Below are positions 17,813 to 36,618 of a DNA stretch of 55,492 nt, in pieces (position 1 is the stretch's first letter; every line of letters begins with the position of its first letter). The stretch covers positions 1 through 55,492 of IMG/VR virus record IMGVR_UViG_3300045988_065224, one strand, 5' to 3'. The position numbers and the translations under genes are program-made. The stretch comes from a virus. Below the pieces are notes generated by a model. It ran no database searches, was not told where the DNA came from, and was given only the letters and a program-made list of their open reading frames with translations.

Positions 17813-20800
17813 TTACCAGAATACCTCCTCACCTTTACTTCTTCGATTTTGATCATCAAAATCTTTAATATGTTGTTGGATCTCTTTCGCAAGAGATTTC
17901 GCATTGACTGGTTGACCATTAGTATCAACTTTAACATTAACATTAAATTCTCTGTTAGAATTATCATTGTTAATTGTTGTTTGCTGGGTACCATTAGGAA
18001 CTCCAGAATATGATGGTTTTGGAAGAGACTTGTTCATCTCTCCAATATTTACATCATAATCTTTCAATTTGAATTTATCTAATTTGCTAGTGTCTACTAT
18101 TGGGGTAATCTTAGGTGAATATGACATGTCGTCAATAGCGACGTCAAGCATATCACCAACAGAATTCACAGCAGAAGAAACCGCTTCAGCAAAGATTTGT
18201 CCTTGTGAAACAGCTCCATCAGCAGCTTTAGAAAATCCAGATTTAAATGTATTGGTCATTTGCTTGATTGTAGATGGCATTTCATTTGCAATACCCATAG
18301 CAACCCCTTGAGGGATAAACTTACCTACATCTTTAGCAAATAACCTTGATGGTGAATGAATATCCGCAGCAGCACGAGCAGCTTCACGTGCTTTATAGAT
18401 AATTCTATTTGCAGCAGACTCAATTTCCCACATGTTTGCGTACATACCAGCAGCGATACCAGATGAAATATAGTAACCTACATTGTAACCTGAAGATCTA
18501 GCAGAACCGGTATATGACCCAACAGTACTAATAATTTGACTCATACCAGAATATACGTTATTTGCAGCAACACCCATACCATTTTGGATAGATGAGGACA
18601 TTACAGTCATCATGGATGAGATAATTTGAGATACTGTTGAACTCATTTTAGTGAATTGTGAGTTGATTTCAGTTACTCGAGAACTGATTGTTTGGGATAC
18701 TCCGCTCATTCCTTGTGACATATCTCTTGAGATTTGGGAGATACTTCCCGAAATAGATGTGGAGATTGTGCTGAATGATGCTTTAGCTTGATCCGCAACC
18801 GATGACATTGACGTTGAGATAGAATTTACAACACCAGTCATGCTAGTTTGTACTGCACCAATAACAGTTTCCATTGAACTAGATACTGCAGAAGATACAA
18901 GACCAAATCCAGCACCCACAGCAGATGCAAGAGCACCAATAGAGCTATCCATAGTGGTTTGGACATTAGCCATACCATTTTGTACAGCCATGACCATACC
19001 TTGCATACCTGTTTCAGTCGCAGCTGTTAGAATTGCGAAAGATTCGGTTGAGTTTGAGATAGAGGAGAAGAACTCGCCCATTTGTGTTTGTGCATTTAAG
19101 AGAGATGTCTTAAATGTTTCAACACTAGTGTTGATTAGGTTGAAGTTTTCCATTAGGAAAGTGATGCTATTTTGAATGTTGATGAATCCTAGGTTAACTG
19201 CTTCCATAGCGCCGACCATAGTTTGGAATTGACCTATAGCGGTTCCGAAAGAAGACAAGATAGCACTCATCATACCAATCAGAGTATTAACAGGTCCCGA
19301 CAAATTCAAGAATGCTGTAGAAGCAGACTCAGCTGATGTCGAAATGTTTGTAAATTCGGTTGATAATGTTTGGAACGCGGTTGCTGCAAGGGATCCTACG
19401 CCAGAAATAATCGTTAGAGATGAAGAAATAATAGTCAATGACGTAGATAACGTCAAGATATTACTTGCTGTATCTCCTAGAGTTGAACACGCTTTAGCAA
19501 GAGTTTCAATGTCAGTAGTAAATCCTTGTAAGTTACCAGCATATGCAGATGCTCCTAGTTTCGCAACTTCCACAGTTAGAGAAGCCAGCCCTGTAGCGGC
19601 AGTAGCTCCGTGTTCACCAACAAGTTTAACGCCTTCTCCGAAAGCTTTAAACCCTTTACCGAATGATTCTGCAGCATCGCCAACTGCTTTGATGATATCA
19701 GCAACACCGTCTAGAGCAGTCTTAATTCCTGTACCAATAGATTCGAAAATCTTACCTACTCCTTCAAGAGCAGTCTTAATACCAGTACCAAATGACTCAA
19801 CAACTTTACCAACACCTTCAAGAGCAGTTTTAACACCTTCACCAAATGACTTGAATACTTCTCCGACACTTGTTAAGACGCCGCTAATAGCTTCGCCAGC
19901 AGTCTTAATGACATTTGCCACGCCATCGATAATATTAATTACTCCAGTAATAACAGTATCAATAGCATCTGCCATAATTCTAAATACTTCGACGATGGCA
20001 TTAACGATTGTCTGAATAGTAGCATGCGTTGAAATAATAACGTCCGCAATAGAACGAATAATATCTTTGATAGCATTTACAGTAGCAATGATTGCTTCTG
20101 CCACAACTGTTATAATTGTAGCAATGCTCTCAAATAGAACCTTAAGTCCTTCCATAAGTGGAGTAAATATAGGTTCGATAGCACTTGCTAAGTTTGATAA
20201 GAATTCTGTTATCATTGTGCCTACAGGAGTTAAGATTTCAACAATCTTCTCTAGTAAAGGAGCCAATAACCCACCCAATACAGATAATAGGACGTCACTG
20301 ATAACCATAAATAAATTCTGCAAAGCAGGAATCAATCTATCTCGTACACCAATAAGAGCATTAGCCAAACTCTCTATGAATTTAACAGCTAACTCAATAG
20401 CCGTTTGGACAAGGATATCTATATTTTCAATAAGACCCTTAGCCAATTCAACAAGCATCTCAACAGCTGCTTTAACTAACTCGGGAGCGTTTTCTTTGAT
20501 GCCGTTTACTAACCCAATAACGAGTTTAAATGCAGCATCCACAATAAATGGTATTAAAACGACTAATCCATTAATAGATTCTTTAACAACAGAAACCCAT
20601 GCCTGAATTAATATAGGAGCACTTTCTGCAATTGCCTTAGAAAATGATACCATGCCTTCAGCAACAGTCTTAAATGCTTCTGGAGCGATCGCGGCTAGTT
20701 CTTTAATAGCAGTAACAAACGCTAAGAAACCAAGACCAGCAATAAGAACTGATGATGCCGCCAATATAGATGATATACCAAAGGTTATCAATGTTGAAGA

Positions 20801-23800
20801 CAATATCATAAGACCAGGAGCCACAACTTGAGCAAGTGCTCCGGCGGCAAGTAATATAGCTAAGTTACCAGCCAATGCTAATAACGCTACACCAACAGCA
20901 ACCAAGTTTAGAGTCGACAACAACATAATAGGAATTGCAAGCATATTCAATGCTACCGCCATACCCATTAATTGAAGAACACCACTAGTAGAACCAACTT
21001 TATCAACAATTGCCATAGCAGCAACCATTGCTCCGAGAGTAGCTATAATAGCTCCTGTAGCAGCAAGGATACCTGTCCATGGTTGTGCCGCAACACCAGA
21101 TAACGCAGAACCTACAGCATAAAGTACCGGAGCAAACGCAGCAATACCACCTAGAGTTGTTACATCAGGTTGAATATGATCAATAAGTGCGGTCATAGCA
21201 GTCAAAGCTCCTAATACAAGGACAATACCACCAAGACCAACTAACATTTGTTTCCAATCGAGTTTACCGATTTGGTCCATAGATGTTCCAATAGCAAGCA
21301 ATACTGATGCAAATGAATCAAACAATATTCGAAGTTGTCCAACCTCAGCGAAGTTTTTAACAGATCCGTTAATTATCTTAGCAGTGTACGCCATCGCTAA
21401 GAATACTGCAGAAATACCAGCAGAAGCAGCAAGTAAACTAGTCCAAGGCTTATCCGCAACTTTCATTAAATTATCAGCGACAGACGTTAACATTGCCGTT
21501 AGAATGATCATTGATAACGCTGCACCAGCATTAAATTTAACTTTCTTCATCAGTGCGGCCACGCCGACTAAAGAAAATAGCATTACTTCAACAGACGCAA
21601 TGCTTTTAACAAGTTGTTCTATAGAAAGTTGTGTCAGCGGCTCTATAGCTTTAGTTATAGCATATATTGCTAAACCAAATGCAACTAGGACCATAGCAGA
21701 TGCCATATTTACTTTGGCTTTCTTCATAAGGTGCGATACACCGACTAAAGAAAGAAGTAAAGCTTCTACTCCAGCCATACCAAGCAAAAGCATATCCCAT
21801 TCCATAGTACCTAAGTCGATAACAGATTGAGACAATAGCCAAATAGATATACCAAAAGCAATCATTCCGGCCATAGCACTCTTATCGATCTTGACTTTGG
21901 TCATAATTCTACTAGCAATAGCTAAAGATTCTAGGAGTGTAACAACCGAAGCTGTGGCTGCTAGAATGCTATCCCAGCTTAATGCAGCGATTTTGATTAC
22001 TGACGAAGTAAGGATTCTTATTGCGATAGAGAAGACTATTAGATTGGCTAATGCGCTCTTAGCTACGTGAACTTTACTCATTACTCTAGACGCTATAGCC
22101 ATAGCAGCCATAAGAGTAATTACTGAGCCGACGGCGGCCAATAATTGAGGCCATTCTATCTTCGCAAGAGCTTTAACCGACCAAACAAGTATTCGAATGG
22201 AGATTGCAAATGTTATAAGATTAGCAATAGCACTCTTAGTAATATGAACTTTATCCAAATACTTAGTAACTTTAGCTAAACTGAAAATAAGAGTTCCCAC
22301 CGCAGGTAATGCGTATAACAACTTCTCAGGTTCTAGTTTTGCAATAGCCTTAATAGACCAAACTAAAATACGAACGGCAAAAGCAATACCAATCAATTGC
22401 ATGATTTTTGCTTCTGAGCCTTCTAGTTTATCAATATATTTCAATGCTCGGACAAGTCCATAAATAGCAGCGTATGTGCCACTGATTGCTTCCATAAGTT
22501 TATCTGTAGGAATTTCTGCCATCTTAACCATTGCTGAAGCCAAGATGCGAATAGCGAATGCAATACCAATTAATTGCATCGCAGACCCTTTAGGAATTTC
22601 AGTAGCGCTCATTACTTTAATGAGTTTCAATAAAATACCCAAAGCACTTCCCAACCCAAGCATACCTTTAGATAAATCTTTCATTTCGATTTTAGAAAGT
22701 CTATCGATAGACAATGCCAAAATACCCAAAGCAATTGCAATCATTAACAATGATCCTATTTTTATACTTTGTGTAAATGAGTTGATTGTTCCTTGTAGAG
22801 ATGTAAATACTCCTTTAACTTCGTCTATAATGCTTGTTCCAGACTCTTTAGCTCCAGAGAACATTTCTTTGAATTTCTCAATGACCATGTCAATGACGCT
22901 ACCTTTAGCGTTCTTGAATTTAAGCCATTTATCTAAAGCGAATAAACCAATAATGGCTTTAATTATACTCCCGATGTTAAATGATGTATAAGCGTCTTTA
23001 AGACCCTCGTATCCGGATTTGAAACTATCAACAATAGCAGTCCAAGCTTGTGAAGTTACTTCACCTATTTTATTCAAAGCCGATGAAAGTTTCTCACCAG
23101 CGTTTGCAAAAATATTAGATGCTCCTGAGAATATTGCCTCAGCGTTTCCAAAAGGATTGGCTAAGGTTTTTAATTTAGAGAAAACGGCACTAAAAGCAGA
23201 ACCTATCTTGCTAGAAACTTTTCCAAGCACATTGCCTATTTGCTCAAATTTATTTGATGATAGGACGAACTTTTCAATAGCTCTAACAAATGTCAATACT
23301 TTTCCGGTAACATCCGATAGAGTTGTTGCAAATGTAACAAGACCCTTACTGTCACCAAACTTAGAAAATCCTCGAAGGATATCTTTTATAATAAATATAG
23401 CGATACGACCAAGAGTCACAATTATATTAAATACATTGGCTAGAGTTTTACCAAGATGATAAAATACAACGTGAGCATTTGTGTTTGATCGCAAAGACTC
23501 CATGAATCTAGCTATAGAATCTGCAGCAGTTCTTATAGGTAATAATATACTTCCAGAAGCGTCGCCAACGGCTTTCATACCAGAAAATACCGTCTTTAGA
23601 GCCCATCCAAGCGTAACAAATGTTTGACCTACCATTTTACCAATACTATTTAAAGTGTTGAAAAATAGTTGATTCTTTTTGATACCTTCGGTTATAGACT
23701 CTAACGCTTTGGTAAAATTATAAAATGTTTTTGCAGATTGTTTGTAATCACCAATAACTGATCTGAAACCTTCACGGAATTTGGTCATCGCATTGAACAC

Positions 23801-25216
23801 AATTTCAAAACTATTTTTAATAGAATTGAATAATGATTGTTGACCACCTAAATCTTTCCATGTTTTAAGCATAGCATTTCGGTAGTTACCGAGACTTCGT
23901 TCAATACCTAAGACTTCATCCCAGTATTTACCTTGGTCATCATTAATAAATGGGTTAACGATATCGCCGATACTTGTCCACATTTCTTTGGCTTCTTCAA
24001 ATCCACCTAGGAAATATTCCCAAGTTTGTGCCCATCCGGAACCAATAGCTTCCTGAACGGTATCTACCAATTGTCCGAATGATTTAACCTTAGTTGCAGC
24101 ATCGAGCATTGACTGGTCTTCGGAGAATTCTCTCAAAGTTTCCAGCAAGACTTCGGAAGTCAACCAACCGTCTTTCAATGAGTCACGGAATGATTTACTC
24201 ATATCACGAGCATGACCCATCTTCTCGGCCATTTGAGTAAGTCTATCTTGGAATAGTTTACCACCCATACCTGCGTTTACTACTGAGTTCCAGTCCTGAA
24301 GACCTACACGACCAGCAGCAAGTGCTTGAGACAACTGATACATTGCCGTAGAAGCTTGTTCCGTACTTGATCCAGAAGCGGCAGCCAAGTTGGAAATACC
24401 TTTAATAGCTGTTGCGGATTTGTCTAGACTAACACCCGCAGCAGTAAATGTACCAATGTTTTTGGTCATATCTGCAAATGAGTAAATAGTCTTATCCGCA
24501 TAGTCATTAAGTTGTTCCAAGGCTCCAGATACTCGACGCATACGAGTAGAAGAGTCTGGAATTTCCCATTCGGTATTGGTCATGATTGTTTGGATTGATC
24601 CGAGTTTGTTTTTATACTCAGCCAAACCATCGCCATAACCTCTAAAGAATTGTCCTGTAAATGACATTGCTTTCTGAAGCATGTTGCCCAAAACATTACC
24701 AACCGCAATATCCATAACAGATAATGAGTTTTGTACTGAGGAAGCTGCTTTAGAAAATGCATTAGCTAGAGGACTTGCATCGAAGCCTCCGATTTTAGAA
24801 TTCAACCCATCAATAGATTTAATTGAATTGGGAAATCCTTCGTGATTATCTGCCTTTTGGAAAATACCCTTGAGACGGGATAGAATCGAAGATGTGTTAG
24901 CAGTCTTGCTAGCAATATCAGTATTCATTCTATCAATAGACCGTCCTCCTCCAGACATATCGATGTCTTGAGTGCTTCGTGAGAAAATTCCTTTAAGGCG
25001 AGATAGTAGTCCCTCAGATTTTTGCGTCGATTTTGAAATTGTGTCATTCATGGTCGACATATCTGAGGCTATGTTTCTAGTAGCATCTTTACCGTTGACT
25101 TTAGCAAAAGCTTCTTTCAATCTGTTGATCGCGGCAATCGCTTCATCAGCATTCTTAGAAAAGCCTTTATTATCTAAGGTGACTTTGGCTACTTTTTCGT
25201 CTACATATCCTGCCAT
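17813..25216 (-). CDS. tail tape measure protein, 2467 aa
   Basis: TP901-type TMP core (ADKTIYSFADMTKNIGTFTAAGVSL...STAMYQLSQALAAGRVGLQDWNSVVNAGMG). C-terminal IHSPSRLFAKDVGKFIPQGVAMGI motif. Long internal hydrophobic and Gly/Ser/Thr-rich repeats. Confidence 0.9.
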   Translation of the reverse strand: MAGYVDEKVAKVTLDNKGFSKNADEAIAAINRLKEAFAKVNGKDATRNIASDMSTMNDTISKSTQKSEGLLSRLKGIFSRSTQDIDMSGGGRSIDRMNTDIASKTANTSSILSRLKGIFQKADNHEGFPNSIKSIDGLNSKIGGFDASPLANAFSKAASSVQNSLSVMDIAVGNVLGNMLQKAMSFTGQFFRGYGDGLAEYKNKLGSIQTIMTNTEWEIPDSSTRMRRVSGALEQLNDYADKTIYSFADMTKNIGTFTAAGVSLDKSATAIKGISNLAAASGSSTEQASTAMYQLSQALAAGRVGLQDWNSVVNAGMGGKLFQDRLTQMAEKMGHARDMSKSFRDSLKDGWLTSEVLLETLREFSEDQSMLDAATKVKSFGQLVDTVQEAIGSGWAQTWEYFLGGFEEAKEMWTSIGDIVNPFINDDQGKYWDEVLGIERSLGNYRNAMLKTWKDLGGQQSLFNSIKNSFEIVFNAMTKFREGFRSVIGDYKQSAKTFYNFTKALESITEGIKKNQLFFNTLNSIGKMVGQTFVTLGWALKTVFSGMKAVGDASGSILLPIRTAADSIARFMESLRSNTNAHVVFYHLGKTLANVFNIIVTLGRIAIFIIKDILRGFSKFGDSKGLVTFATTLSDVTGKVLTFVRAIEKFVLSSNKFEQIGNVLGKVSSKIGSAFSAVFSKLKTLANPFGNAEAIFSGASNIFANAGEKLSSALNKIGEVTSQAWTAIVDSFKSGYEGLKDAYTSFNIGSIIKAIIGLFALDKWLKFKNAKGSVIDMVIEKFKEMFSGAKESGTSIIDEVKGVFTSLQGTINSFTQSIKIGSLLMIAIALGILALSIDRLSKIEMKDLSKGMLGLGSALGILLKLIKVMSATEIPKGSAMQLIGIAFAIRILASAMVKMAEIPTDKLMEAISGTYAAIYGLVRALKYIDKLEGSEAKIMQLIGIAFAVRILVWSIKAIAKLEPEKLLYALPAVGTLIFSLAKVTKYLDKVHITKSAIANLITFAISIRILVWSVKALAKIEWPQLLAAVGSVITLMAAMAIASRVMSKVHVAKSALANLIVFSIAIRILTSSVIKIAALSWDSILAATASVVTLLESLAIASRIMTKVKIDKSAMAGMIAFGISIWLLSQSVIDLGTMEWDMLLLGMAGVEALLLSLVGVSHLMKKAKVNMASAMVLVAFGLAIYAITKAIEPLTQLSIEQLVKSIASVEVMLFSLVGVAALMKKVKFNAGAALSMIILTAMLTSVADNLMKVADKPWTSLLAASAGISAVFLAMAYTAKIINGSVKNFAEVGQLRILFDSFASVLLAIGTSMDQIGKLDWKQMLVGLGGIVLVLGALTAMTALIDHIQPDVTTLGGIAAFAPVLYAVGSALSGVAAQPWTGILAATGAIIATLGAMVAAMAIVDKVGSTSGVLQLMGMAVALNMLAIPIMLLSTLNLVAVGVALLALAGNLAILLAAGALAQVVAPGLMILSSTLITFGISSILAASSVLIAGLGFLAFVTAIKELAAIAPEAFKTVAEGMVSFSKAIAESAPILIQAWVSVVKESINGLVVLIPFIVDAAFKLVIGLVNGIKENAPELVKAAVEMLVELAKGLIENIDILVQTAIELAVKFIESLANALIGVRDRLIPALQNLFMVISDVLLSVLGGLLAPLLEKIVEILTPVGTMITEFLSNLASAIEPIFTPLMEGLKVLFESIATIITVVAEAIIATVNAIKDIIRSIADVIISTHATIQTIVNAIVEVFRIMADAIDTVITGVINIIDGVANVIKTAGEAISGVLTSVGEVFKSFGEGVKTALEGVGKVVESFGTGIKTALEGVGKIFESIGTGIKTALDGVADIIKAVGDAAESFGKGFKAFGEGVKLVGEHGATAATGLASLTVEVAKLGASAYAGNLQGFTTDIETLAKACSTLGDTASNILTLSTSLTIISSSLTIISGVGSLAATAFQTLSTEFTNISTSAESASTAFLNLSGPVNTLIGMMSAILSSFGTAIGQFQTMVGAMEAVNLGFINIQNSITFLMENFNLINTSVETFKTSLLNAQTQMGEFFSSISNSTESFAILTAATETGMQGMVMAVQNGMANVQTTMDSSIGALASAVGAGFGLVSSAVSSSMETVIGAVQTSMTGVVNSISTSMSSVADQAKASFSTISTSISGSISQISRDMSQGMSGVSQTISSRVTEINSQFTKMSSTVSQIISSMMTVMSSSIQNGMGVAANNVYSGMSQIISTVGSYTGSARSSGYNVGYYISSGIAAGMYANMWEIESAANRIIYKAREAARAAADIHSPSRLFAKDVGKFIPQGVAMGIANEMPSTIKQMTNTFKSGFSKAADGAVSQGQIFAEAVSSAVNSVGDMLDVAIDDMSYSPKITPIVDTSKLDKFKLKDYDVNIGEMNKSLPKPSYSGVPNGTQQTTINNDNSNREFNVNVKVDTNGQPVNAKSLAKEIQQHIKDFDDQNRRSKGEEVFW
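19622..19894 (-). repeat. tandem 57-bp (19-aa) repeats inside the tape measure gene
   Basis: The DNA repeats ccttcaagagcagt(c/t)tta... The protein reads FGEGVKTALEGVGKVVES / FGTGIKTALEGVGKIFES / IGTGIKTALDGVADIIKA. Confidence 0.8.
20897..22588 (-). repeat. about ten tandem repeats of roughly 58 aa (hydrophobic) inside the tape measure gene
   Basis: Repeat units begin near aa 877, 936, 994, 1052, 1111, 1171, 1230, 1289, 1354 and 1412. The pattern is K-SA-ANLIxFxIxIRILxxSVxxIAxxxWxxLLAAxxSVxxLxxxLAIASRxMxKV. Confidence 0.75.
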
Positions 25217-25223
25217 AGGTTAC

Positions 25224-25904
25224 CTACCTTTTCTGCATCAATTTTTTAACAGTTTCTAAAGCTTGAGTATCAATTGAATCAATGGTTTTACCTGTAGAAT
25301 TCATTTGACGTTTAGCTTTTGCGAAATTATCAGCAATTGTTGAAATCTTACGTTTCGTATCTGCTATAGATTCTGGTTTTCTTCGTCCAAGAATTCCAGG
25401 TTTTTGTTGAGCAATTTTCAGAATATTATCCGCATAAGAATCTGCGTTTGATTTAGAAGCCTGTTTAGCGGCTTTCTTTAAAATTGCTTCGTCCATTTGT
25501 TTTGTAAAACGCTCGGTATCTTTACGATGAGCTTCTTTTACAACATCCTTAATTTTTCCGCCAAAACCTTTGATTTTTGAGTTTTTACCAGATTTTATCT
25601 GTTCGTTAGTTTTACGGATTTTATTAAGCTGTTCTGCGGCTTTTTGCAATCTCTTTTGATCAAGATAACGAGAAACACCCTTGTATCCTTTATATCCTAG
25701 ATATGTACCAAGCGCTGCACCTCCTACGATAGCTGCAGTTTTAGCAGCTTTTTCGATTTTTAATCGCTTTTCAGTTTTAGCGGCAGCACTATTCATATCA
25801 TACCCTTTGGATAGGTATTTATTCATAAGATGTTCTCGACGATTTCTTCGACCCCACTTCATGCCTTTTATTCCGAAGTGTTGGATCGTGTCATTATATT
25901 TCAT
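25224..25904 (-). CDS. basic protein with N-terminal HFGIKGMKWG motif (226 aa); paralog family member c
   Basis: ATG 25904 behind AGGTGATTCAT. Starts MKYNDTIQHFGIKGMKWGRRNRR. Contains the Gly/hydrophobic patch TAAIVGGAALGTYLGY and a Lys-rich tail. Lies immediately upstream of the tape measure. Confidence 0.65.
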   Translation of the reverse strand: MKYNDTIQHFGIKGMKWGRRNRREHLMNKYLSKGYDMNSAAAKTEKRLKIEKAAKTAAIVGGAALGTYLGYKGYKGVSRYLDQKRLQKAAEQLNKIRKTNEQIKSGKNSKIKGFGGKIKDVVKEAHRKDTERFTKQMDEAILKKAAKQASKSNADSYADNILKIAQQKPGILGRRKPESIADTKRKISTIADNFAKAKRQMNSTGKTIDSIDTQALETVKKLMQKR

Positions 25905-25913
25905 ATGAATCAC

Positions 25914-26273
25914 CTATTTGAAATAATCTTCAAGTATCTTTTCGATAGTTTTCTTATAAACAGAATTAATTGCTTTATCAATATATGGTCTTGGTGGAAC
26001 ATACCCTCCTGTTCCGGTACCGTGGCCATAGTGAATTAACATTGCAACATTAACCCCGTTATTTAAATGACTATTGTATATCTCCAAATCAATCCCTCTA
26101 GATGTAGGTATTAATCTGTACCCCCATGATTCGGCGGTTTCGCCAGACTCTTTTGGCGTCGCATCTTTTAAGGCCTTTACAATAGCCTTGCCTAAAATAT
26201 CCATATTGGTTGTTCTAGGTCTTGTTAAAAATTTTTCCAAATGTCCGAAATCTCCAGAAACTGATATAGCCAT
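25914..26273 (-). CDS. HK97 gp10-like head-tail/tail-completion family protein (119 aa)
   Basis: The pattern ...KESGETAESWGY...NVAMLIHYGHGTGTGGYVPPRPYIDKAI matches my recollection of the HK97 gp10 family. Confidence 0.6.
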   Translation of the reverse strand: MAISVSGDFGHLEKFLTRPRTTNMDILGKAIVKALKDATPKESGETAESWGYRLIPTSRGIDLEIYNSHLNNGVNVAMLIHYGHGTGTGGYVPPRPYIDKAINSVYKKTIEKILEDYFK

Positions 26274-26779
26274 TAGTTACCAATCCTTTCTGCGATTTTT
26301 CGTAGTTGTTTCTCTTTATCAACATCACTTAGTTTGGAACTTGATGCAACTTTGAGAACCTTATTTGTTAACAAATCATTGTCCCTATTATTTTTAAGGA
26401 GTCGTTTTGTTTCTTTATAAGAATTTCTCAAACTTCGTTTTTCATTTCGATAAACTCTTCTAGCAGAATCTGCTCCAGTAGCAATATCGTAGGTCTTTGC
26501 TCCTAAAACACCAGACATTCCATAATTAAGAAAATCTTTATTCCTAGTAAGTACACCTAAACCAAGAGAAACAATTCCAGAATTTTTTAGAGATCTAGAA
26601 AACCTACCCGGACGATTTTTCTTATATCGACGTTTAGCTTCTTTTAAACGTTTCTTATAATATCTTCTGTTTCTGATTCTATCTAATGTATATCGGGTTC
26701 TTACACCCCATTTCATACCTTTGACGCCGAAATGTTCAATAGTATCAGAAAAGGAGACTGCAATATAATTATTTTCCAT
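26273..26779 (-). CDS. basic protein with N-terminal HFGVKGMKWG motif (168 aa); paralog family member b
   Basis: ORF 26273..26899 trimmed to ATG 26779 behind AAGGAGTAGAATGC. Starts MENNYIAVSFSDTIEHFGVKGMKWGVRTRY, followed by an Arg/Lys-rich remainder. Confidence 0.65.
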   Translation of the reverse strand: MENNYIAVSFSDTIEHFGVKGMKWGVRTRYTLDRIRNRRYYKKRLKEAKRRYKKNRPGRFSRSLKNSGIVSLGLGVLTRNKDFLNYGMSGVLGAKTYDIATGADSARRVYRNEKRSLRNSYKETKRLLKNNRDNDLLTNKVLKVASSSKLSDVDKEKQLRKIAERIGN

Positions 26780-29134: not shown

Positions 29135-31042
29135 TTATCCTCCAGGAACTCCTGCACGAGCAGCTTGAGCTCCGGCAGCTTGAGATTGAACATCGGCTTG
29201 GTGAGCACGAGGAGCAACAGATGCATCTGGAGTAAAGTATACAGCAGCTTTAGCGCGAACAAGAGCACCAGACAAGCGAGTTTCGATAAGATATTTGTGT
29301 TTGTTGAAGTCGATATCGAAGTCTTCGAATGTGTTAACTTCTCCACCTTTGTTTGTACCGATTTGGTAGTCAGCAAGGTTAACCATGATCATTTCTTGTT
29401 CTTTGATAAAGTTACTTTCAACAATATCAGCAACACCCATCAATGACGCGAGGTATTCTTTGGTAGCGGGTTGTTGTCCACCAAATACCCAGTTACCGTT
29501 CTTATTGCGCAAGAAGCGAAGTTTAGTAAGGAACAATGGGTTTACATACAATGTAGGTGTTCCAGAACCAAGCATCTTAGTCTTTTGCTCAGCAACGATT
29601 TCGAATACGTCCAACATAGCGTTTGGATTGTATTTAGCTTTGATTGTATAGAAGTCATCATCTTTAGAGATAGGACGAATCTTATCTTCTTTGATTTTGT
29701 CTTCCGAACCAGTTTCACGTCCGTCAGAAACCATGATCGCTTGCGCAATTTCATCATTGAGTTTGATACGCATTTCTTGACGGAAGAAAGCAGCTACGTC
29801 CAATTGTTGGCTGATGTCAATAAGGTCGTCACGGTCAATCGATTGTTTTTTATAGATTGTTTGAGGGTCAGTTTTACGAGAAAGGAATCCAATGATTTGT
29901 TCTTTCTTTTCTTTACCCTTGATGTAACCTTTAGCACGAAGTTGTTCGTCAGTAAGGTTTGTAAGGTCAGTCATAAGAGACTTAACGAAAGCAGTGGGTA
30001 CTTTTGTAACGCGGCTAAGAATATGTTCTGTAGCAGTGTTAGGTGAGTAAAGTACTTGAATACCGCCTTGTAGGGCATGATCTGGGAACAACAAATCGAG
30101 GTTGTTCATTGAGTGTTTCAAAGTGTCACCGTGTTCAAATTCGGTCAACACTTGACTTAGTTTGCGGCCTGAATCTTTAGCAGTAGCAAGAGCATCTTCA
30201 AGTGAGTGACGGAGTTCGTCAGTGTTGTTTGACACGTTTTGGAACGCGTTGTAGTGCATAGTGTTTCCTCCTAGGGCTGATTGTTCAATTTCTTCTTCAT
30301 CGTCGCTATTAGCAAGTTCTTCAAGAATACTATCAACTTGATCTTCAACAGCAGCGTCAAAGTTTTCGGCTACTTGATTTTCAAAGTTTTCCAAAGCAGA
30401 ATCAGTAGATGCTTCGACCAAGATAGCAACAGCTTCTTGTTGGTCTGGGGTTAGTGTTGACAATACGCCATCAACAATATCAGTAGCTTCACCTTCATCT
30501 GCGTGTTGGATACGGTCAAACAAGCTGATGCGTTCTTGACCTACCAATACATCTTGTGATGAGTGAATAAGTTCATTACTTTCCATAATGATTGTTTCTC
30601 CTTCTTCGGGATTTTGTGAGTGTTGTAGGACTTCGGTAATAACCGCTCCTGGATTTGCTCCAGCTACAACGAGAGATACTTCATAGATATTTCCATGAAT
30701 AACGTCATTACTTGGGGTACGTTTAATACGATTAGCCCCAATAGACATGGACCAGATGTCACCATGTTGAACAAGTTCTTTAGCTTGCTTCGCTGATGGC
30801 GTACCATTAAAGAATCCTTGTCCATAAACTCCATCGTTTGCATTATGCAATAACACATGGCCAATAATGTTGTCTGGGTTACTATGATCGTGAGACCATA
30901 CCAGAGGAACTTTTTGACCATCATTACCAGCAAAAGCACCATGTCGGATAATAACACCATCGGTACAACGGGTGTCGTTGCGAGTTACGTAACCCGCGAA
31001 GTCATACTCGGGATGTTTGCTCATTCCATGATTTTCCTCCAT
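29135..31042 (-). CDS. prohead protease (HK97/S78-like) fused to a scaffold-like acidic linker and an HK97-fold major capsid protein, 635 aa
   Basis: The N-terminus VPLVWSHDHSNPDNIIGHV...WSMSIGAN...YEVSLVVAGANPGAVI is S78-protease-like. Residues 150-260 are acidic and helical, like a delta domain. The C-terminal 350 aa or so have capsid size and position. The start could be ATG 31024. Confidence 0.75.
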   Translation of the reverse strand: MEENHGMSKHPEYDFAGYVTRNDTRCTDGVIIRHGAFAGNDGQKVPLVWSHDHSNPDNIIGHVLLHNANDGVYGQGFFNGTPSAKQAKELVQHGDIWSMSIGANRIKRTPSNDVIHGNIYEVSLVVAGANPGAVITEVLQHSQNPEEGETIIMESNELIHSSQDVLVGQERISLFDRIQHADEGEATDIVDGVLSTLTPDQQEAVAILVEASTDSALENFENQVAENFDAAVEDQVDSILEELANSDDEEEIEQSALGGNTMHYNAFQNVSNNTDELRHSLEDALATAKDSGRKLSQVLTEFEHGDTLKHSMNNLDLLFPDHALQGGIQVLYSPNTATEHILSRVTKVPTAFVKSLMTDLTNLTDEQLRAKGYIKGKEKKEQIIGFLSRKTDPQTIYKKQSIDRDDLIDISQQLDVAAFFRQEMRIKLNDEIAQAIMVSDGRETGSEDKIKEDKIRPISKDDDFYTIKAKYNPNAMLDVFEIVAEQKTKMLGSGTPTLYVNPLFLTKLRFLRNKNGNWVFGGQQPATKEYLASLMGVADIVESNFIKEQEMIMVNLADYQIGTNKGGEVNTFEDFDIDFNKHKYLIETRLSGALVRAKAAVYFTPDASVAPRAHQADVQSQAAGAQAARAGVPGG

Positions 31043-31044
31043 TA

Positions 31045-32352
31045 TTATTTGCCGCCATTTTGAAGATCTTCTTCGCTGTACTCAGGAGGGTAATCAGAGT
31101 AAGCTTCCTCTTCAGGGGACCCGACAGACCCAGGTATAGAAACATCTTGTCTTGCATCTGAGATGTTCGGATTGTACAATTGATCAGCCATAGGATCTTC
31201 GATAGGTCCATAACCAATAATAGCACGAAATTCGTTTGATGTAAGAATTCTGTTTCGCAATAATGAATCGCCAATTGTAGCCAATTGACCAGTAGGTACA
31301 AGTTTGAAAGGATTACTATATGTATCAATTCTATGTCCTTGTGTATACCCAGTTTTAGTGATGAATTTACGTTGGAATTCTTCTTTAATTCTGGTGACAA
31401 TAGGATCAATAGTTCGAGTATAGTAATTTTGCATTTGATCGGCACTAGCGGTTCCATCTAAAATAGCTTTAGTTAGACCTAGTTGTCCCAACAATTCTTC
31501 GGTTAAGTACTTAACCTCATCCATAAGATTGGAATTGATTTGTCGGTTAAGCTGAGTAATTTTCTCATCAGCCCCAATATATGCAATACCCATTTTAGAG
31601 TCTTTCAACTGTCCTTCAATATCCCCAATACGAGCATTCGCTTCATTTCGTTTGAGATCATTTCGAACCGGATTAGGTAGTTGTAGAATGATATTCCATT
31701 TGTTAGAAATCAACTCCAAATCTTGCTTATCCAAAATCGAAAGTTTTTGAATCAAACGAGTCATAGTAGGATTCTCGGTTCCAAGGATATTAGCCAAAGG
31801 GTTCTCGATAATAGCGCACATTTTCTTAGGCACAATTATCTCGGAGAATTCTCCCTTAGCCTCATTATAAATTTTTACCCGGATTTTAGTTGGAAACCAT
31901 TCCATTATTTTTCCGACACGCATTGCTTTGATATCATACGAATCGGACTCCATAGGATTAATTGTTGCCTCTAGAGGGACAGCAGCAACTACTCCTTCGT
32001 CAAATAATGAATAAACCAAATCATGGAAGAAATCTGTGCTAGATTGATCCACGTTCATTTCTACTTCAAACAATCGTTGAAGAGAAGAAGACCTTTGAAC
32101 CACTTGATTTTCTTTTTCCATATCAATCTTTACATGTTGAAATTTAACCATAGATGCATCAATAGCAATACGGTTAAAAATCATGGAGGAAATTGCTGAT
32201 CTAGAAAACGTTCGAGTGGGTATTGAATTGTTTGGATTCAATGCCCTAGGTTCGTTAGGAATCTGGAATACTTTTTCGGTTTCCACAAATGATGCGGAAT
32301 CAGTTTTAAACATAGACCAAGCATGCTTTAGTCCATCGGTAAAAGTGCCCAT
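31045..32352 (-). CDS. portal protein (435 aa)
   Basis: ORF 31045..32412 trimmed to ATG 32352 behind GAAAGGCATATTTAGTT, just after the TerL stop. Called from position between TerL and protease-capsid and from size. Confidence 0.65.
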   Translation of the reverse strand: MGTFTDGLKHAWSMFKTDSASFVETEKVFQIPNEPRALNPNNSIPTRTFSRSAISSMIFNRIAIDASMVKFQHVKIDMEKENQVVQRSSSLQRLFEVEMNVDQSSTDFFHDLVYSLFDEGVVAAVPLEATINPMESDSYDIKAMRVGKIMEWFPTKIRVKIYNEAKGEFSEIIVPKKMCAIIENPLANILGTENPTMTRLIQKLSILDKQDLELISNKWNIILQLPNPVRNDLKRNEANARIGDIEGQLKDSKMGIAYIGADEKITQLNRQINSNLMDEVKYLTEELLGQLGLTKAILDGTASADQMQNYYTRTIDPIVTRIKEEFQRKFITKTGYTQGHRIDTYSNPFKLVPTGQLATIGDSLLRNRILTSNEFRAIIGYGPIEDPMADQLYNPNISDARQDVSIPGSVGSPEEEAYSDYPPEYSEEDLQNGGK

Positions 32353-32368
32353 AACTAAATATGCCTTT

Positions 32369-34096
32369 CTATCCAAATAAATCTTGGTTACGCTTGTACG
32401 CAACCCAAGCATCGATTAACGCAGCAACGTTATCGATTTTCTCATCAGAACGACGTTTAGATAACTTGTAGTTACCGTTGTTGTCCTGAATTGCAACAGT
32501 ATTACCCATTGCAAATTTCATTAATTCTTCGTCAAATATTAACATGCGTTCCATAGCCAAATTCTTTAATTCGCCCATCGGTACAGATTCGGTTTTAGCA
32601 CCCTGAATAACTTTTTCTACACCGTATTCACCATTGTCTCGAATCCATCTTTCGACGAATTCTCTAGCATTATACGGGTCATATCCAAATGCGTAAACAG
32701 TATATTTGTGTTGGTATACGAAGTTGTATACATCGTCATATACTCGTTCCATATCAAGAATAACTCCTGGCATAACAACAAGTGTACCCTCAGAAATCAA
32801 TTCATCATACTTATTGCGCATTGCGGAAGTTAGTTTTCTTAATTTAGACTCACAAACATACGATCTAGTTTTAACACCAAATCGTCCATGGCCAAGAGGA
32901 AATAGAAATGTGAACGCACAGAAATCATCACCTTGTGATAAGTCAGCACCCAAGGCGCATTCCAAGCCATCGAAGTTTTGAGGTCTGTGTGGAATTGTCT
33001 CTTCATAGACGAAGAAGTAAGTATAACCCTCAACAGGTATTCCGAAACGTTTAGCGAGCGTATCTGAACGAGTTGCCGGTTGATTTTCAGCACGTTCGAC
33101 TTCATCTCGATATGTTTCATAAGTTACAGTAGCTCCAAGATTAGGATTTGCTTTCATCCATAACTCGGGATTAGCAACTTCTCGTACATCATCCAGTCGA
33201 TAATACCAAATAGATACATGAGGGTTAAAATATCGACCTTCCAAAATATCCATAAGCTCCATCTTGATAGTATCTCCGACACCATCACGAGCAGTCCCTT
33301 CGGAAGATGTAGCGATTATGAGATAATTGTCATTTTTGCTAGCACCCTGTTGAATAGCTCCGATTACGTCTTCTTTGACTTCACCAGAAAGCCACTCATC
33401 AACGGATGCATACTTACAACGAAGACCTTGAAGTTTGTCTCTAGACATTGGACGAATTTCCAATAGACTGTTCGTTGCAAAGTTCTCAACACCCTTCTTA
33501 GTAGACGCTAATAATTGCTTTTTGGTTAGATTTCCGGTCATTTTAGAACCTTGTGTCATATAACCAATTAGTGGACCTTTAGCCCTACTCAACGCAGTCC
33601 TAAAAGGACCCATAATTTCCTCCGCCTGTTTCATTGTAGGCGCAGTAACTATTTGGTGAGTTGTAGCAGTGTCAATTAGAAGCATGTACGCTTGCATGAA
33701 TGTTGAGTATAGTGATTTTGCAGCACCACGTCCGACAATAAGATACTGTCTGTTCGTGAGTCGCTTGAATTTCTTTCGGATCTCCCACTTTCCAAGTTTT
33801 GGATTGTAGACATTATCCTCAGAAATGTAAAACCACGCTAGGGCACATTCTGCCCATAATCTAAAAGACGGCAAGAGAGTTACATCTCCTCCGTCGGTAA
33901 GGGTCATTTCGTTTTCACAAAATCTAATAAACCCTTGAATCGCTTTGTCGTCATAGTAATAATCCGGAGACTCAATTAAGAAGTCAATTCGGTTCATTTC
34001 CAGAGAGACCGTGCGATTAACCGGAATTTCACCTCTCAGAACTGCTTCTTTGAACTTCATATATTCTTCCGGATAAGCTTTATTAGATAATACCAT
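32369..34096 (-). CDS. terL: terminase large subunit (Terminase_1-like), 575 aa
   Basis: Walker A LIVGRGAAKSLYS, Walker B-like YASVDEW, and nuclease-domain pattern ALGADLSQGDDFCAFTFLF. Confidence 0.85.
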   Translation of the reverse strand: MVLSNKAYPEEYMKFKEAVLRGEIPVNRTVSLEMNRIDFLIESPDYYYDDKAIQGFIRFCENEMTLTDGGDVTLLPSFRLWAECALAWFYISEDNVYNPKLGKWEIRKKFKRLTNRQYLIVGRGAAKSLYSTFMQAYMLLIDTATTHQIVTAPTMKQAEEIMGPFRTALSRAKGPLIGYMTQGSKMTGNLTKKQLLASTKKGVENFATNSLLEIRPMSRDKLQGLRCKYASVDEWLSGEVKEDVIGAIQQGASKNDNYLIIATSSEGTARDGVGDTIKMELMDILEGRYFNPHVSIWYYRLDDVREVANPELWMKANPNLGATVTYETYRDEVERAENQPATRSDTLAKRFGIPVEGYTYFFVYEETIPHRPQNFDGLECALGADLSQGDDFCAFTFLFPLGHGRFGVKTRSYVCESKLRKLTSAMRNKYDELISEGTLVVMPGVILDMERVYDDVYNFVYQHKYTVYAFGYDPYNAREFVERWIRDNGEYGVEKVIQGAKTESVPMGELKNLAMERMLIFDEELMKFAMGNTVAIQDNNGNYKLSKRRSDEKIDNVAALIDAWVAYKRNQDLFG

Positions 34097-34115: not shown

Positions 34116-34637
34116 CTAAAAGCCCCAAATACCTCGAACTTTATTAATAGCCCCTTGATTTTCTTCTTTCAATTTTCGGAACTGATCTAAAGTAACATTA
34201 GTTATAGGAGAATACTTATTCGTTTTGTTCTTCATAAGATCTCCAACAATAGTCTTGACACCAGTATCAATAACTGAATTAGTCACTGATCGTCCAATGT
34301 CTTTAGCAAACTTACCATGTTCTTTCTTAGGTTTACGGGTATCAGCAATTTGGTTTGCACGCCGTACTTGTTCGGCGAAATCATTCTCCATACGGAGTCG
34401 TCTTGTTGCTGCTTGAAGATCATGTTCTGTCATCGAATGACGTTTATGGTACTTCATGTTCCAAGCTTTACGAGCAGCTTTACTTTCTTTTCGAGCTTGC
34501 CTCGTCTTAGAATGCAGCCATTTTGAAGGACTTCGTCTGAAACCCCATTTCATTCCTTTAACTCCGAAATGTTCAAGTATGTCATCGGAACTAGCGGTTT
34601 CAATTGCGTGGAGAAGATCTTTATCTACATCATTCAT
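34116..34637 (-). CDS. basic protein with N-terminal HFGVKGMKWG motif (173 aa); paralog family member a
   Basis: Starts MNDVDKDLLHAIETASSDDILEHFGVKGMKWGFRRSPSKW, followed by a Lys/Arg-rich remainder. Lies immediately upstream of terL. Confidence 0.65.
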   Translation of the reverse strand: MNDVDKDLLHAIETASSDDILEHFGVKGMKWGFRRSPSKWLHSKTRQARKESKAARKAWNMKYHKRHSMTEHDLQAATRRLRMENDFAEQVRRANQIADTRKPKKEHGKFAKDIGRSVTNSVIDTGVKTIVGDLMKNKTNKYSPITNVTLDQFRKLKEENQGAINKVRGIWGF

Positions 34638-34980
34638 TAGACCCCTCCCTAGTTTGTAAGATTATTCGATGTGCCGTCGATTGTAAGGATCTTTCTAAAG
34701 AAGTTAGAATACTACCTACAGGAGGATCGAACTTCAAACGAATTGATACAAGCACATATTGCTTAACCAATCGAACAAGATTCGGATCTTTATTAGGAAT
34801 CAATGATTCCCAAGTAGTATCTTTCTTAGCTTCGAAAGTTAATTGGACATTTGTAAGTTGAGATAACTCACCGACAATTCCATCCAATTCCAATAACAAT
34901 CTATCGTCATAACCAGTATCTTCTTCGGAAGCGAAATCTACAGATGTCTTAATATCATTAAGAATCGTCATATAGTTCAC
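34630..34980 (-). CDS. possible gp6-like head-tail connector / DNA-packaging protein (116 aa)
   Basis: The N-terminus ILNDIKTSVDFASEEDTGYDDRLLLELDGIVGEL resembles the Phage_connect_1 pattern. The position upstream of terL is unusual. Confidence 0.4.
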   Translation of the reverse strand: MNYMTILNDIKTSVDFASEEDTGYDDRLLLELDGIVGELSQLTNVQLTFEAKKDTTWESLIPNKDPNLVRLVKQYVLVSIRLKFDPPVGSILTSLERSLQSTAHRIILQTREGSNE

Positions 34981-35412
34981 CTACCATAATTTAGTATCAC
35001 CCGGAGATCTTTCTACGTAGTTCATTGATTGAACTCTACCAAATCCGTAATGGATTATATTATGCGTATTATATGATGTTGTGATTAATAGATCTGGGTT
35101 TAGGATAATGTCTTCGCGCCATTCTAATATGTCTTCTTCAATTAGAGGAATCATATGGTGGACTAGAGGCGGGCCTTCTATTTCGACATCCTTTACGCCC
35201 AAATCGTATCCAAGATCACGAGCAATAATATAATCACGCATATCTCTCCAAATTCTGGATTTGTAGAAAGCGTTAGAAATTTCTCTAGGCGATTTGTATC
35301 CCCTATTCATAAGGGATAGGAAATTCAGTCTATCTCCGAAATTATCAAAAGTCAAAAGTTTTTTATAGCTGAGATCACGTAAGTTTTCTCGGTTGTAATC
35401 ATTTTGAATCAT
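34981..35412 (-). CDS. HNH endonuclease (143 aa)
   Basis: VHHMIPLIEEDILEW...NPDLLITTSYNTHNIIHYG gives an H-H...N...H motif. Lies next to the terminase genes, as in HNH-dependent cos packaging systems. Confidence 0.75.
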   Translation of the reverse strand: MIQNDYNRENLRDLSYKKLLTFDNFGDRLNFLSLMNRGYKSPREISNAFYKSRIWRDMRDYIIARDLGYDLGVKDVEIEGPPLVHHMIPLIEEDILEWREDIILNPDLLITTSYNTHNIIHYGFGRVQSMNYVERSPGDTKLW

Positions 35413-35414
35413 TT

Positions 35415-35729
35415 TTATAGTTCTTCAGATGGAGCATAGCCGCGAATAGCTGCTATGACTGCCTCGCTGTCGCCCTTTCCTTTAACTTCACTTTCGATTA
35501 ATTCGATTTTAGAATCTGATAATTTCTTGTTGGATCGCATAGCTTCAAGTTGTAATTCACGCTCTGCTGTACCAAATCGCAACAAGGCATTCAAAGTACT
35601 TGGAGCTATTGATCCGTCATCAAGCTGTTTATTTGCAAGATTGAAAGCTTTCATAGTTAGCTTATCAAGCATACCTTCCGGAGTAAGTCCGGGAGGTAAA
35701 GGTTTTGCATCACTTTTCTTCCGTGCCAT
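35415..35729 (-). CDS. possible terminase small subunit (104 aa)
   Basis: Called only from position at the head of the packaging cluster and from size. Basic N-terminus MARKKSDAKPLPPGLTPEG. Confidence 0.35.
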   Translation of the reverse strand: MARKKSDAKPLPPGLTPEGMLDKLTMKAFNLANKQLDDGSIAPSTLNALLRFGTAERELQLEAMRSNKKLSDSKIELIESEVKGKGDSEAVIAAIRGYAPSEEL

Positions 35730-36060
35730 ACTCAGTCACCTCTTTTGGTTGAGATTGCTGAAGACGGCGAAGTTCTTGAACGGCATGTTCAATATAGTCA
35801 GATGCTTGTTCAGATGTAAGTTTCACACCTGTTTCTGATGCGTAAGACAATAGCTTATCCAAAGCTTCTTTTTTCTTAGAAGTGTTTTCAATTAGCATAT
35901 TGTCTAATGCTGTTACAATAATTAGAGCTCGCTCAGCGAGTGTGATTACTGCTTTGTTGTGCGTTGCTGCCCCGAGGTACTTAACTAGGTTCAATACTAC
36001 CGGTGCAAATACGATAACTAAAGTTACCAATGTGATAATATCATCTACTGCAATTGTCAT
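35710..36060 (-). CDS. holin-like protein (LL-H / Phage_holin_6-like pattern), 116 aa
   Basis: N-terminal TM stretch IITLVTLVIVFAPVVLNLV, then ...KKKEALDKLLSYASETGVKLTSEQASDYIEHAVQEL. This matches the G-x-K-L-T-x-E-Q...IE-x-AV signature I recall for LL-H family holins. Confidence 0.5.
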   Translation of the reverse strand: MTIAVDDIITLVTLVIVFAPVVLNLVKYLGAATHNKAVITLAERALIIVTALDNMLIENTSKKKEALDKLLSYASETGVKLTSEQASDYIEHAVQELRRLQQSQPKEVTEYGTEEK

Positions 36061-36473
36061 TTTTCTTTCTCCTTATTCGAAGCTCGGAGTTCCTCCACAT
36101 AGTCGTCAACAACACGAGAGACATACGAGTTGTAGCCTTTCTCTTTGTATTGATCGTACAGGTAGAGAATCTCGCTCTCAGATAATCTACCGGAATGAAT
36201 GCCAGTAATTATCTGTAGTCTAAGAAAATCTCTTTCTTGATTTCTATGAAGTTCTTGAAAGCTGACTGTGAGAGCATTGATAGAGTTTTTAATGCTATCA
36301 ATCTCATCATTCTGTTTCGCTTCAAGGCTGATCCATAACTTTTTAAAAGCTTTGATGCCAACCCCATAGATAGATGCGCCGACACCAATGTAAACACCAA
36401 TTTGACTAAGTACCTCAGGAGATATCAACCACATTAGTAGTGCTTTGATATGCTCTTGCATTTCATTGCTCAT
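36057..36473 (-). CDS. membrane protein with coiled-coil C-terminus (138 aa)
   Basis: AAAGGAGGATAAACC before the ATG. Hydrophobic stretch QIGVYIGVGASIYGVGI. First gene after terminator 36572..36613. Confidence 0.55.
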   Translation of the reverse strand: MSNEMQEHIKALLMWLISPEVLSQIGVYIGVGASIYGVGIKAFKKLWISLEAKQNDEIDSIKNSINALTVSFQELHRNQERDFLRLQIITGIHSGRLSESEILYLYDQYKEKGYNSYVSRVVDDYVEELRASNKEKEK

Positions 36474-36515
36474 GGTTTATCCTCCTTTTGATCATACATC
36501 CACCCTAGATAGTAA

Positions 36516-36528
36516 TCCCAAATTGGGA
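36516..36528. promoter_or_regulatory. 13-bp palindrome TCCCAAATTGGGA in the leader of the late gene string; candidate operator
   Basis: Perfect palindrome lying between the terminator and the RBS of 36057..36473. The minus strand has TTGAAA just upstream. Confidence 0.3.
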
Positions 36529-36571
36529 CTTTCAACCACTCCGGAGAAATTTTGGAGAGGTGGGGCGATGC

Positions 36572-36613
36572 AAAAGGGTCGAAAAATTTTGCGACCCTCC
36601 CCCTATGGGGGTG
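36572..36613 (-). terminator. tandem-hairpin rho-independent terminator after 36619..36939
   Basis: Minus strand CCCCC-ATA-GGGGG, then GGGTCG-CAAAATTTTT-CGACCC followed by TTTT. Confidence 0.65.
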
Positions 36614-36618
36614 TGAAT

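Follow-up and report, generated by a model that had tools for sequence, protein, structure and literature searches.

Short conserved peptides bring diverse cargo into shells of the HK97 fold, as in the C-terminal targeting signal of the HK97 protease and the cargo-loading peptides of encapsulins; most of these peptides are single and stand at the C-terminus, they do not serve as protease sites, and their binding pocket is known. Proteases of the assemblin clan, including phage families S77 and S78, typically read a hydrophobic residue at P3 and a fixed residue at P1, for example (V/L/I)-x-A↓S in herpesvirus and (L/I)-x-E↓ in phage T4 (the arrow marks the cut). The capsid targeting sequences of T4 (internal proteins IPI-III, and Alt) are short N-terminal peptides of 10-20 amino acids (aa) on unrelated basic head-internal proteins, and are cut by gp21 at (L/I)-x-E (PMC5694885). 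In phages phiKZ, 201phi2-1 and SPN3US many head proteins are cut at one consensus motif, (A/S)-x-E; paralogs of the gp53/gp54 type have identical N-termini and diverged bodies, extra propeptide sites are thought to aid fragment clearance, one ejected protein has a transmembrane segment, and the virion RNA polymerase enters the head, losing an N-terminal propeptide in one phage (PMC5694885). Here a ten-residue tag, H-[FH]-G-[VI]-K-G-M-K-W-G, which belongs to Pfam family PF23847 (DUF7211), was analyzed in IMG/VR virus record IMGVR_UViG_3300045988_065224; the whole stretch of 55,492 nucleotides (nt) is called the window below. At roughly even odds (about 0.5), DUF7211 would be a capsid-loading and processing tag for ejected internal proteins, with enzyme cargo in relatives, and so a portable address-and-processing signal of one large siphophage lineage of Gram-positive hosts.

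Four open reading frames (ORFs) on the minus strand carry the tag, and a six-frame scan of the whole window found G[VI]KGMKWG exactly four times, confirming the genes and the shared decapeptide of the original prediction. Protein A (25224..25904; 226 aa, net charge +33) has the tag at aa 9-18 (nt 25880-25851), protein B (26273..26779; 168 aa, +27) at nt 26734-26705, protein C (34116..34637; 173 aa, +16) at nt 34571-34542, and protein D (10637..11260; 207 aa, +32) at nt 11200-11171. A Shine-Dalgarno-like sequence precedes each ATG: AAGGAG for B (26779), GGGAGG for C (34637), AGGAGG for D (11260) and, the weakest, AGGTGA for A (25904). The Lys/Arg-rich character that had been noticed was borne out by isoelectric points of 10.2-10.7, a Lys plus Arg content of 21-26% and net charges of +16 to +33. 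Leaders are 8-22 aa long, as had been stated, and their net charge runs from neutral to -6, so not all are acidic. The Gly/hydrophobic patch was found as a Gly/Ala-rich stretch in three of the four proteins (among them TAAIVGGAALGTYLGY in A and IAGAIGLAAVGLPSLI in D), two of which passed a formal filter; the 34116 protein has none. Outside the tag the proteins are scarcely similar, the sole BLASTP match being a weak one between the 25224 and 10637 proteins (E=0.002). Because the bodies are barely alike, the four are better described as carriers of one tag than as close paralogs.

The tag, which the first reading of the sequence could not place in a named family, scored 34.6 (25224), 38.1 (26273), 41.8 (34116) and 39.0 bits (10637) against PF23847, whose gathering threshold is 27 bits and whose 25 model positions comprise the tag motif and a short leader. 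Scores above threshold indicate that the shared motif is not due to chance; an origin by chance or from low-complexity sequence was rejected on these scores and on the invariant His, Gly and Trp. Nor does the tag fit a WXG/type VII secretion signal, as it has W-G and not W-x-G. Pfam annotates PF23847 as a family of unknown function. In PHROGs the four proteins fall in more than 12 'unknown function' families, with one weak 'virion structural protein' match. The NCBIfam search matched no family, and a literature search on DUF7211, PF23847 and the motif strings returned nothing relevant. Neither by sequence nor by profile was a relative of the tag, of the C-type module or of the capsid fusion described below recovered from the solved structures. 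The best match, to the 80alpha scaffolding protein, was non-significant (E=2.7) and was treated as compositional.

A HMMER search with the N-terminal profile (motif plus leader, a check put forward with the original prediction) against 1.84 billion representative proteins at E<=0.001 matched 6,557 clusters, defined at 50% identity. Architecture statistics were taken from the best 150 of these 6,557 clusters, in which the proteins are mostly 270-1569 aa long and carry 2-5 tags each, spaced mostly 150-250 aa apart (about 180 aa). Splitting at the tags gave 438 modules with a median of 177 aa, matching the size of the separate genes in the window; tags thus recur inside long proteins at single-gene intervals, a layout that is polyprotein-like. 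Net basic charge was found in 92% of the 438 modules and a Gly/Ala-rich uncharged stretch of at least 15 aa in 19%. The motif L-S-x-x-E-L-x5-R-L-x-L-E was present in 73 of 150 last modules versus 2 of 288 others, and protein C has this second motif too, in the form (M/L)(S/T)xx(D/E)Lxxxxx-R-L-x-(L/M)-E. Pfam domains in 149 multi-tag proteins were 2H phosphoesterase (26 proteins), GNAT (11), CW_7 (2) and a glutamine-deamidase toxin domain (1). Homologous 2H domains of Microbacterium and Arthrobacter phages lie within genes annotated as capsid maturation protease, MuF-like fusion or portal, and fusion of 2H to MuF or portal has been discussed for polyvalent proteins (Iyer et al. 2017, PMC5512222). 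A separate search with a 50-aa tag profile returned only proteins below 90 aa, of query-like length, and was uninformative on architectures.

A second sequence element joins the tagged proteins to the capsid gene. In the window the S78 prohead protease (aa ~15-138) is fused through an acidic linker to the major capsid protein (29135-31042, minus strand; 635 aa). The linker (nt 30113..30637, minus strand; aa 136-310, 175 aa) has a net charge of -34 and contains six hydrophobic-x-His-small sites, LQH↓S, LIH↓S, IQH↓A, LRH↓S, FEH↓G and LKH↓SMNNLDLLFPD, and the capsid part contains none. There is no separate scaffold gene in the window; the linker is a putative scaffold-like region with putative protease sites. 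In aligned protease-capsid fusions L-x-H-[S/G/A] is repeated, partly invariant and restricted to the protease-capsid linker. Across 10 diverse fusions, whose linkers have net charges of -24 to -59, [LIVMFA]-x-H-[STAGDN] occurred at 2.98 per 100 aa in the linker versus 0.03 in the capsid part (~100-fold), and in 10/10 one such site lay ~6-13 aa ahead of the conserved LFP[DES] N-arm, as does LKH↓SMNNLDLLFPD in the window. The same element appears at the portal N-terminus when the gene is read from its second Met (MGTFTDGLKH↓AWS), likewise at that of the portal of Lactococcus phage P078, and in the leaders of proteins C (DLLH↓A) and D (ELLH↓T). In the multi-tag proteins a hydrophobic-x-His-[S/G/A/D] element precedes many internal tags, mostly by 9-13 aa (hydrophobic at -2 in 89%, Ser at +1 in 44%, Asp/Glu at +2 in 47%), and the tag itself begins with L-x-H (Leu at -2 in 86%, His in 100%). 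Among 217 unique N-terminal tags the shortest leader was 5 aa (M-x-x-hydrophobic-x-H) and the median 12. From this conservation and distribution we infer that hydrophobic-x-His↓small is the site of the prohead protease and that the tagged proteins are its substrates, which would therefore be placed inside the procapsid. N-O acyl-shift self-cleavage at H-S was rejected, since Ser is replaced by Ala, Gly or Asp at many sites.

The consensus tag was searched by tblastn against 50,697 phage records and found at 623 places in 184 records, 1-8 per record among the records listed. The records were phages of Arthrobacter, Gordonia, Streptomyces, Rhodococcus, Curtobacterium, Microbacterium and Bifidobacterium, one 'Bacteriophage' record and Caudovirus D_HF5_2C; Lactococcus 1706-like phages were recovered with a window protein as the query. 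Every cultured-phage genus with the tag also has a YonO-like RNA polymerase, and among cultured phages DUF7211 is confined to the lineage having that polymerase and the protease-capsid fusion. The window carries the sequence signature of this lineage, which is already described and includes Streptomyces BI, Gordonia, Arthrobacter, Rhodococcus, Lactococcus 1706-like and Faecalibacterium phages, which have in common their structural and replication blocks and a putative RNA polymerase of the YonO type (bioRxiv 10.1101/842583). The literature searched makes no mention of the restriction to one lineage, of the polyprotein layout, of a link to the protease motif or of the sister tag of the polymerase described next.

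The polymerase of the window is an 877-aa protein (36961-39594, minus strand) that matched phrog_4291 at E=5.5e-303, with a DFDGD catalytic loop at aa 500-504 and N- and C-terminal helix-turn-helix (HTH) domains; its Pfam RdRP score of 22.8 bits is just under the 23.8 cut-off. By these features it is assigned as a YonO / two-barrel RNA polymerase, not a DNA polymerase, and the polymerase of the lineage has likewise been assigned as YonO-like (bioRxiv 10.1101/842583). It is the signature gene of this actinophage, Lactococcus 1706 and Faecalibacterium lineage, in which it is often annotated merely as 'HTH DNA-binding protein' or 'RNA-dependent RNA polymerase'. Its product begins MDLEEYLIHKGTPHQGNTPHSGRYAWGSGEN, with a string resembling the tag (EEYLIHKGTPHQGNTPHSGRYAWGSG, nt ~39585-39508), as the original prediction had noticed. 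The N-terminus is kept in orthologs from Conley (DEEDYLAHYGILRRSGRYPWGSG), KeaneyLin (ELNELMHYGTPRKSGRYPWGSG) and RosaAsantewaa (EENYIAHYGILRKSGRYPYGSG); the string is conserved across Gordonia, Arthrobacter and Streptomyces orthologs and is N-terminal in ~100 orthologs. A Pfam scan of the 877-aa protein gave no DUF7211 match for the N-terminus at E<=0.01, and for three proteins with a GRYPWGSG-type tag no Pfam DUF7211 match was reported. Alignment of the two profiles by hhalign gave a probability of 94% (E=1.2e-7) over the first 15 columns (acidic - L-x-H-Y-G-hydrophobic), the second halves (G-M-K-W-G vs G-R-Y-P-W-G) differing by an indel. The polymerase string is thus, on profile comparison, a conserved sister motif and not a member of DUF7211. 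A DNA-pattern scan of IMG/VR for G-R-Y-P-W-G-S-G returned 120 loci, mostly at aa 5-64 of ORFs of 850-1040 aa. Among the other loci are three small genes in tandem (locus L058, 154-3798) that each begin with a tag of the polymerase type (MNDLYIMHYGVGHDKGGHSGRYPWGSG); two of them encode GNAT acetyltransferases, so that cargo other than the polymerase also bears the sister tag. Promoter and terminator sites around the polymerase gene were no commoner than in shuffled controls, and the scan therefore carries no information on the timing of expression.

Tag and polymerase are found together in one set of phage genera, and the polymerase bears a sister tag of its own; both would also suit an intracellular role, in which the tag binds the phage polymerase, DNA or a host hub protein, and the basic proteins act outside the virion as DNA-binding or transcription factors whose genes only happen to stand among late genes. 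With their strong positive charge and predicted helices the tagged proteins resemble nucleic-acid binders, and contact with nucleic acid could be made by the Gly/Lys/Arg/Trp-rich core. An acidic leader joined to invariant His, Gly and Trp, however, resembles a protein-binding or protease site more than a DNA hook, and at the loci inspected the tagged genes always lie in the virion block, never in an early or replication region. Such a role would also give no account of the enzyme cargo, of the polyprotein layout or of the x-His sites in linker and portal, and we consider it unlikely.

As a capsid-loading and processing signal, the tag would be laid out as an acidic leader, hydrophobic-L-x-H, [YFH]-G-V-K-G-M-K-W-G and a basic body, and proteins bearing it would be recruited into the assembling procapsid by docking of the tag on the protease, the linker or the capsid interior. 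The basic bodies (+16 to +33) would be attracted by the acidic linker (-34 per subunit). The capsid-borne protease would then cut at hydrophobic-x-His↓small sites, destroying the linker, trimming the portal and freeing the mature capsid protein by a cut after His310 (SMNNLDLLFPD... in the window). Identical cuts would strip the short leaders from C and D and, in relatives, split multi-tag polyproteins into modules of ~180 aa. The freed basic modules would remain in the head with the DNA and exit with it at infection, some having Gly/Ala-rich membrane-like segments and some, in relatives, 2H phosphoesterase or GNAT domains. The RNA polymerase with its sister tag may take the same route, although its packaging in the virion is conjecture drawn from that motif. 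The idea of a tag for virion targeting or protease cleavage, put forward in the original prediction, gains from the polyprotein layout, the x-His element shared with linker and portal, the enzyme domains and the sister motif of the polymerase. One part of it needs revision: the decapeptide is probably retained by the mature protein, or lies to the prime side of the cut, and is probably not a removable leader of the T4 kind.

Several observations weigh against capsid loading and processing. Of the 342 internal tags, 219 lack a [LIVMF]-x-H-[STAG] site in the 40 aa upstream, and for 124 the stretch from -30 to -6 contains no His. Cleavage before each tag is therefore not universal, unless the L-x-H of the tag is itself the site. 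Proteins A and B have no upstream hydrophobic-x-His site. Because the 2H domain precedes the first tag on the N-terminal side, cleavage would release it untagged. An AlphaFold model of protein C, built on a shallow alignment of 24 orthologs, consists of helices throughout except for an unstructured tag core and has low confidence (pLDDT, the predicted local distance difference test, 54.5); it fits an extended scaffold-like or internal protein without discriminating between readings. The polymerase gene abuts replication genes, with an 11-nt gap after the exonuclease gene, and YonO, the best-studied relative, transcribes late genes and is not known as a packaged protein. The literature search found no proteomic, structural or genetic sign of DUF7211 proteins or the polymerase in virions, and no virion proteomics for tagged proteins under ReqiPepy6/Poco6, 1706, Arthrobacter phages, Oengus or YonO packaging. 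Finally, tag, polymerase and protease-capsid fusion co-occur in one lineage, so that co-occurrence by itself does not tell which partner the tag serves.

At every locus inspected the tagged genes were within the virion block, beside the large terminase (TerL), the portal or the tape measure. They are gp6 (2H plus tag) and gp8 in CricKo, and gp12 (2H plus tag) and gp14-16, between TerL and portal, in Avazak. Genes 007 and 008 of P078 and the tagged genes of BitterVaud1 and Camille precede TerL, five copies surround TerL in a 325-kb metagenomic contig, and D_HF5_2C has three copies ahead of the tape measure and a further one ahead of TerL. A conserved slot between connector and TerL is occupied by protein C in the window, by a 2H-plus-tag protein in actinophages, or by a 760-aa four-tag polyprotein (L132). 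In the window its left border is a connector-like virion protein (Phage_connect_2 / phrog_4247; 34630-34980) directly upstream of C, and TerL (32369-34096) follows directly downstream of C, both on the minus strand. The order HNH endonuclease (34981-35412, minus strand), connector-like gene, protein C and TerL (34116-35412, minus strand) is conserved across the lineage. In the 325-kb contig (L008, 8850-10135) a 44-aa DUF7211 fragment stands beside an opposite-strand 356-aa gene in an otherwise co-oriented block, as if an inserted element had disrupted a tagged gene; near the polymerase gene of the same locus lies a Tad2-like gene (Pfam PF11195).

The position of protein C raises the question of a packaging machine, in which the tag docks on terminase or portal, the C-type module is the missing small terminase (TerS) and the other tagged proteins are accessory DNA-binding packaging factors. 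No small terminase was recognisable in the window or annotated in the relatives inspected. In every genome inspected the C-type gene stands immediately before TerL and after the HNH endonuclease, the classical TerS position and size; in the window C ends 20 nt before TerL and falls within the 100-200 aa expected of TerS. The protein is basic, and two moderately confident consecutive helices in its model (aa 37-67 and 71-100) are also possible for TerS. Searches of Pfam, PHROGs, NCBIfam and PDB profiles, on the other hand, gave no TerS family match for C, and the connector - X - TerL slot also holds proteins of 500-1500 aa with 2H or other modules before the C-type module, which is odd for TerS. 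Tags on GNAT and 2H enzymes, tagged genes beside the tape measure and after the tail genes, and the x-His motif common to the capsid linker would all be left unexplained. We therefore regard a packaging-machine role for the tag as improbable; the TerS function itself may come from protein C or from a small gene at 35415-36939.

Two of the tagged genes stand near the tape measure. A and B flank the gene for an HK97 gp10-like tail-completion/neck protein (phrog_5; 25914-26273, minus strand), with A directly upstream of the 2467-aa tape measure, in agreement with the arrangement first described; the gene for protein D lies at the distal end of the tail gene block. The two copies here, and three in D_HF5_2C, directly upstream of the tape measure would fit tagged proteins that travel in the tail lumen with the tape measure or enter the host membrane, as a channel or in superinfection exclusion or lysis timing. 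Gly/Ala-rich uncharged stretches in 19% of modules, some homologs annotated as membrane proteins and two with CW_7 cell-wall-binding repeats point the same way. Such a role is nonetheless quite improbable: in most lineage members the copies flank TerL and portal and not the tape measure, the hydrophobic patches are short and missing from most modules, and an 877-aa polymerase and cytoplasmic enzymes are ill-suited to the tail lumen. Membrane activity after ejection is compatible with a capsid-loading tag and is not a competitor to it.

Compared with T4, the tag of the window is likewise a short N-terminal peptide on basic proteins with otherwise unrelated bodies, and it shares the hydrophobic-x-fixed-residue format (here a putative x-His site), the acidic scaffold partner and the length of the leaders (mostly 5-22 aa here). 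It differs in that the most conserved part, G-V-K-G-M-K-W-G, is downstream of the putative cut and may stay on the mature protein, in that the tag is also internal and repeated in polyproteins, and in that the protease is fused to the capsid protein. Head-protein processing in phages of the phiKZ type is a second analogy for the proposed tag. Those phages are myoviruses with genomes above 200 kb and a polymerase of several subunits; the window is a siphovirus of 55 kb, its YonO-like polymerase is a single chain and its motif is another one. With the HK97 and encapsulin signals the tag has in common a short conserved peptide on diverse cargo, but it is N-terminal or repeated and its binding partner is only putative. 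Polyvalent proteins (Iyer et al. 2017) resemble the strung modules of the relatives, including 2H and GNAT, next to terminase and portal. Relatives with 2-5 modules and 2H or GNAT approach the definition (at least two effector or enzymatic domains); proteins A to D are single tag plus basic-tail modules and fall outside it. The processing enzyme proposed for polyvalent proteins is a zincin-like metallopeptidase, and Iyer et al. (2017) make no mention of Arthrobacter, Gordonia, Rhodococcus or Lactococcus, the host genera of the lineage that were looked for in that paper.

The first 55 nt of the window recur at its end (1-55 = 55438-55492), and it was therefore taken as a circularly closed assembly and a complete genome of ~55.4 kb; its GC content is 37% and nearly all long ORFs are on the minus strand. 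The nearest record in the cultured collection was Caudovirus D_HF5_2C from human saliva (76% nucleotide identity). A full-length alignment search, which returned almost exclusively near-identical relatives, found many metagenomic contigs of 54-57 kb encoding near-identical proteins. The portal gene (31045-32352, ORF listed to 32412; minus strand) likely starts at the second Met, and a primase-helicase/DNA polymerase fusion (42277-46155, minus strand; 1292 aa) has a DUF5906 region and matched phrog_4210 at E=0. Tail genes, including the tape measure, occupy 17813-25216 on the minus strand. The tape measure contains tandem ~59-aa hydrophobic repeats that look like a run of membrane-like helices, with the motif ...AxxLIxFAIxIRIL... 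at aa 889, 1007 and 1066 and in further diverged copies. The gp10-like gene adjoins the tape measure instead of preceding the major tail protein, as it also does in phage P078 (P078_0017). The endolysin gene (46781-47686, minus strand; amidase plus cell-wall-binding region) is ~11 kb from a holin-like gene (35710-36060, minus strand), which is placed between the polymerase and the HNH/terminase block.

The lineage concerned includes hundreds of cultured SEA-PHAGES isolates, the Lactococcus 1706-like dairy phages and abundant human oral and gut phages. The confinement of DUF7211 to it among cultured phages, the recurrence of the tag in polyproteins and the sister motif of the polymerase stand even if head loading is wrong. 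If head loading is right, a 10-residue peptide would reveal from sequence the injected cargo of a very large lineage (6,557 clusters), and thousands of genes now called 'hypothetical' within structural operons would gain a function. Ordinary siphophages of 55 kb would be predicted to carry an RNA polymerase in the virion, along with pre-loaded enzymes of types that are known to act against nucleotide-signalling defences, and the capsid-fused prohead protease would have a new cleavage specificity (hydrophobic-x-His); the peptide would also provide a natural tag for loading foreign proteins into capsids. A wider picture, which we hold as tentative and rather doubtful, is that phages of this widespread lineage, with hosts among Actinobacteria and Firmicutes, load a single-chain YonO-like polymerase, basic DNA-associated proteins and anti-defence-type enzymes (2H, GNAT) into the head and inject them with the DNA. 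Early transcription would then be independent of the host polymerase, and the capsid-fused protease would double as the cargo receptor.

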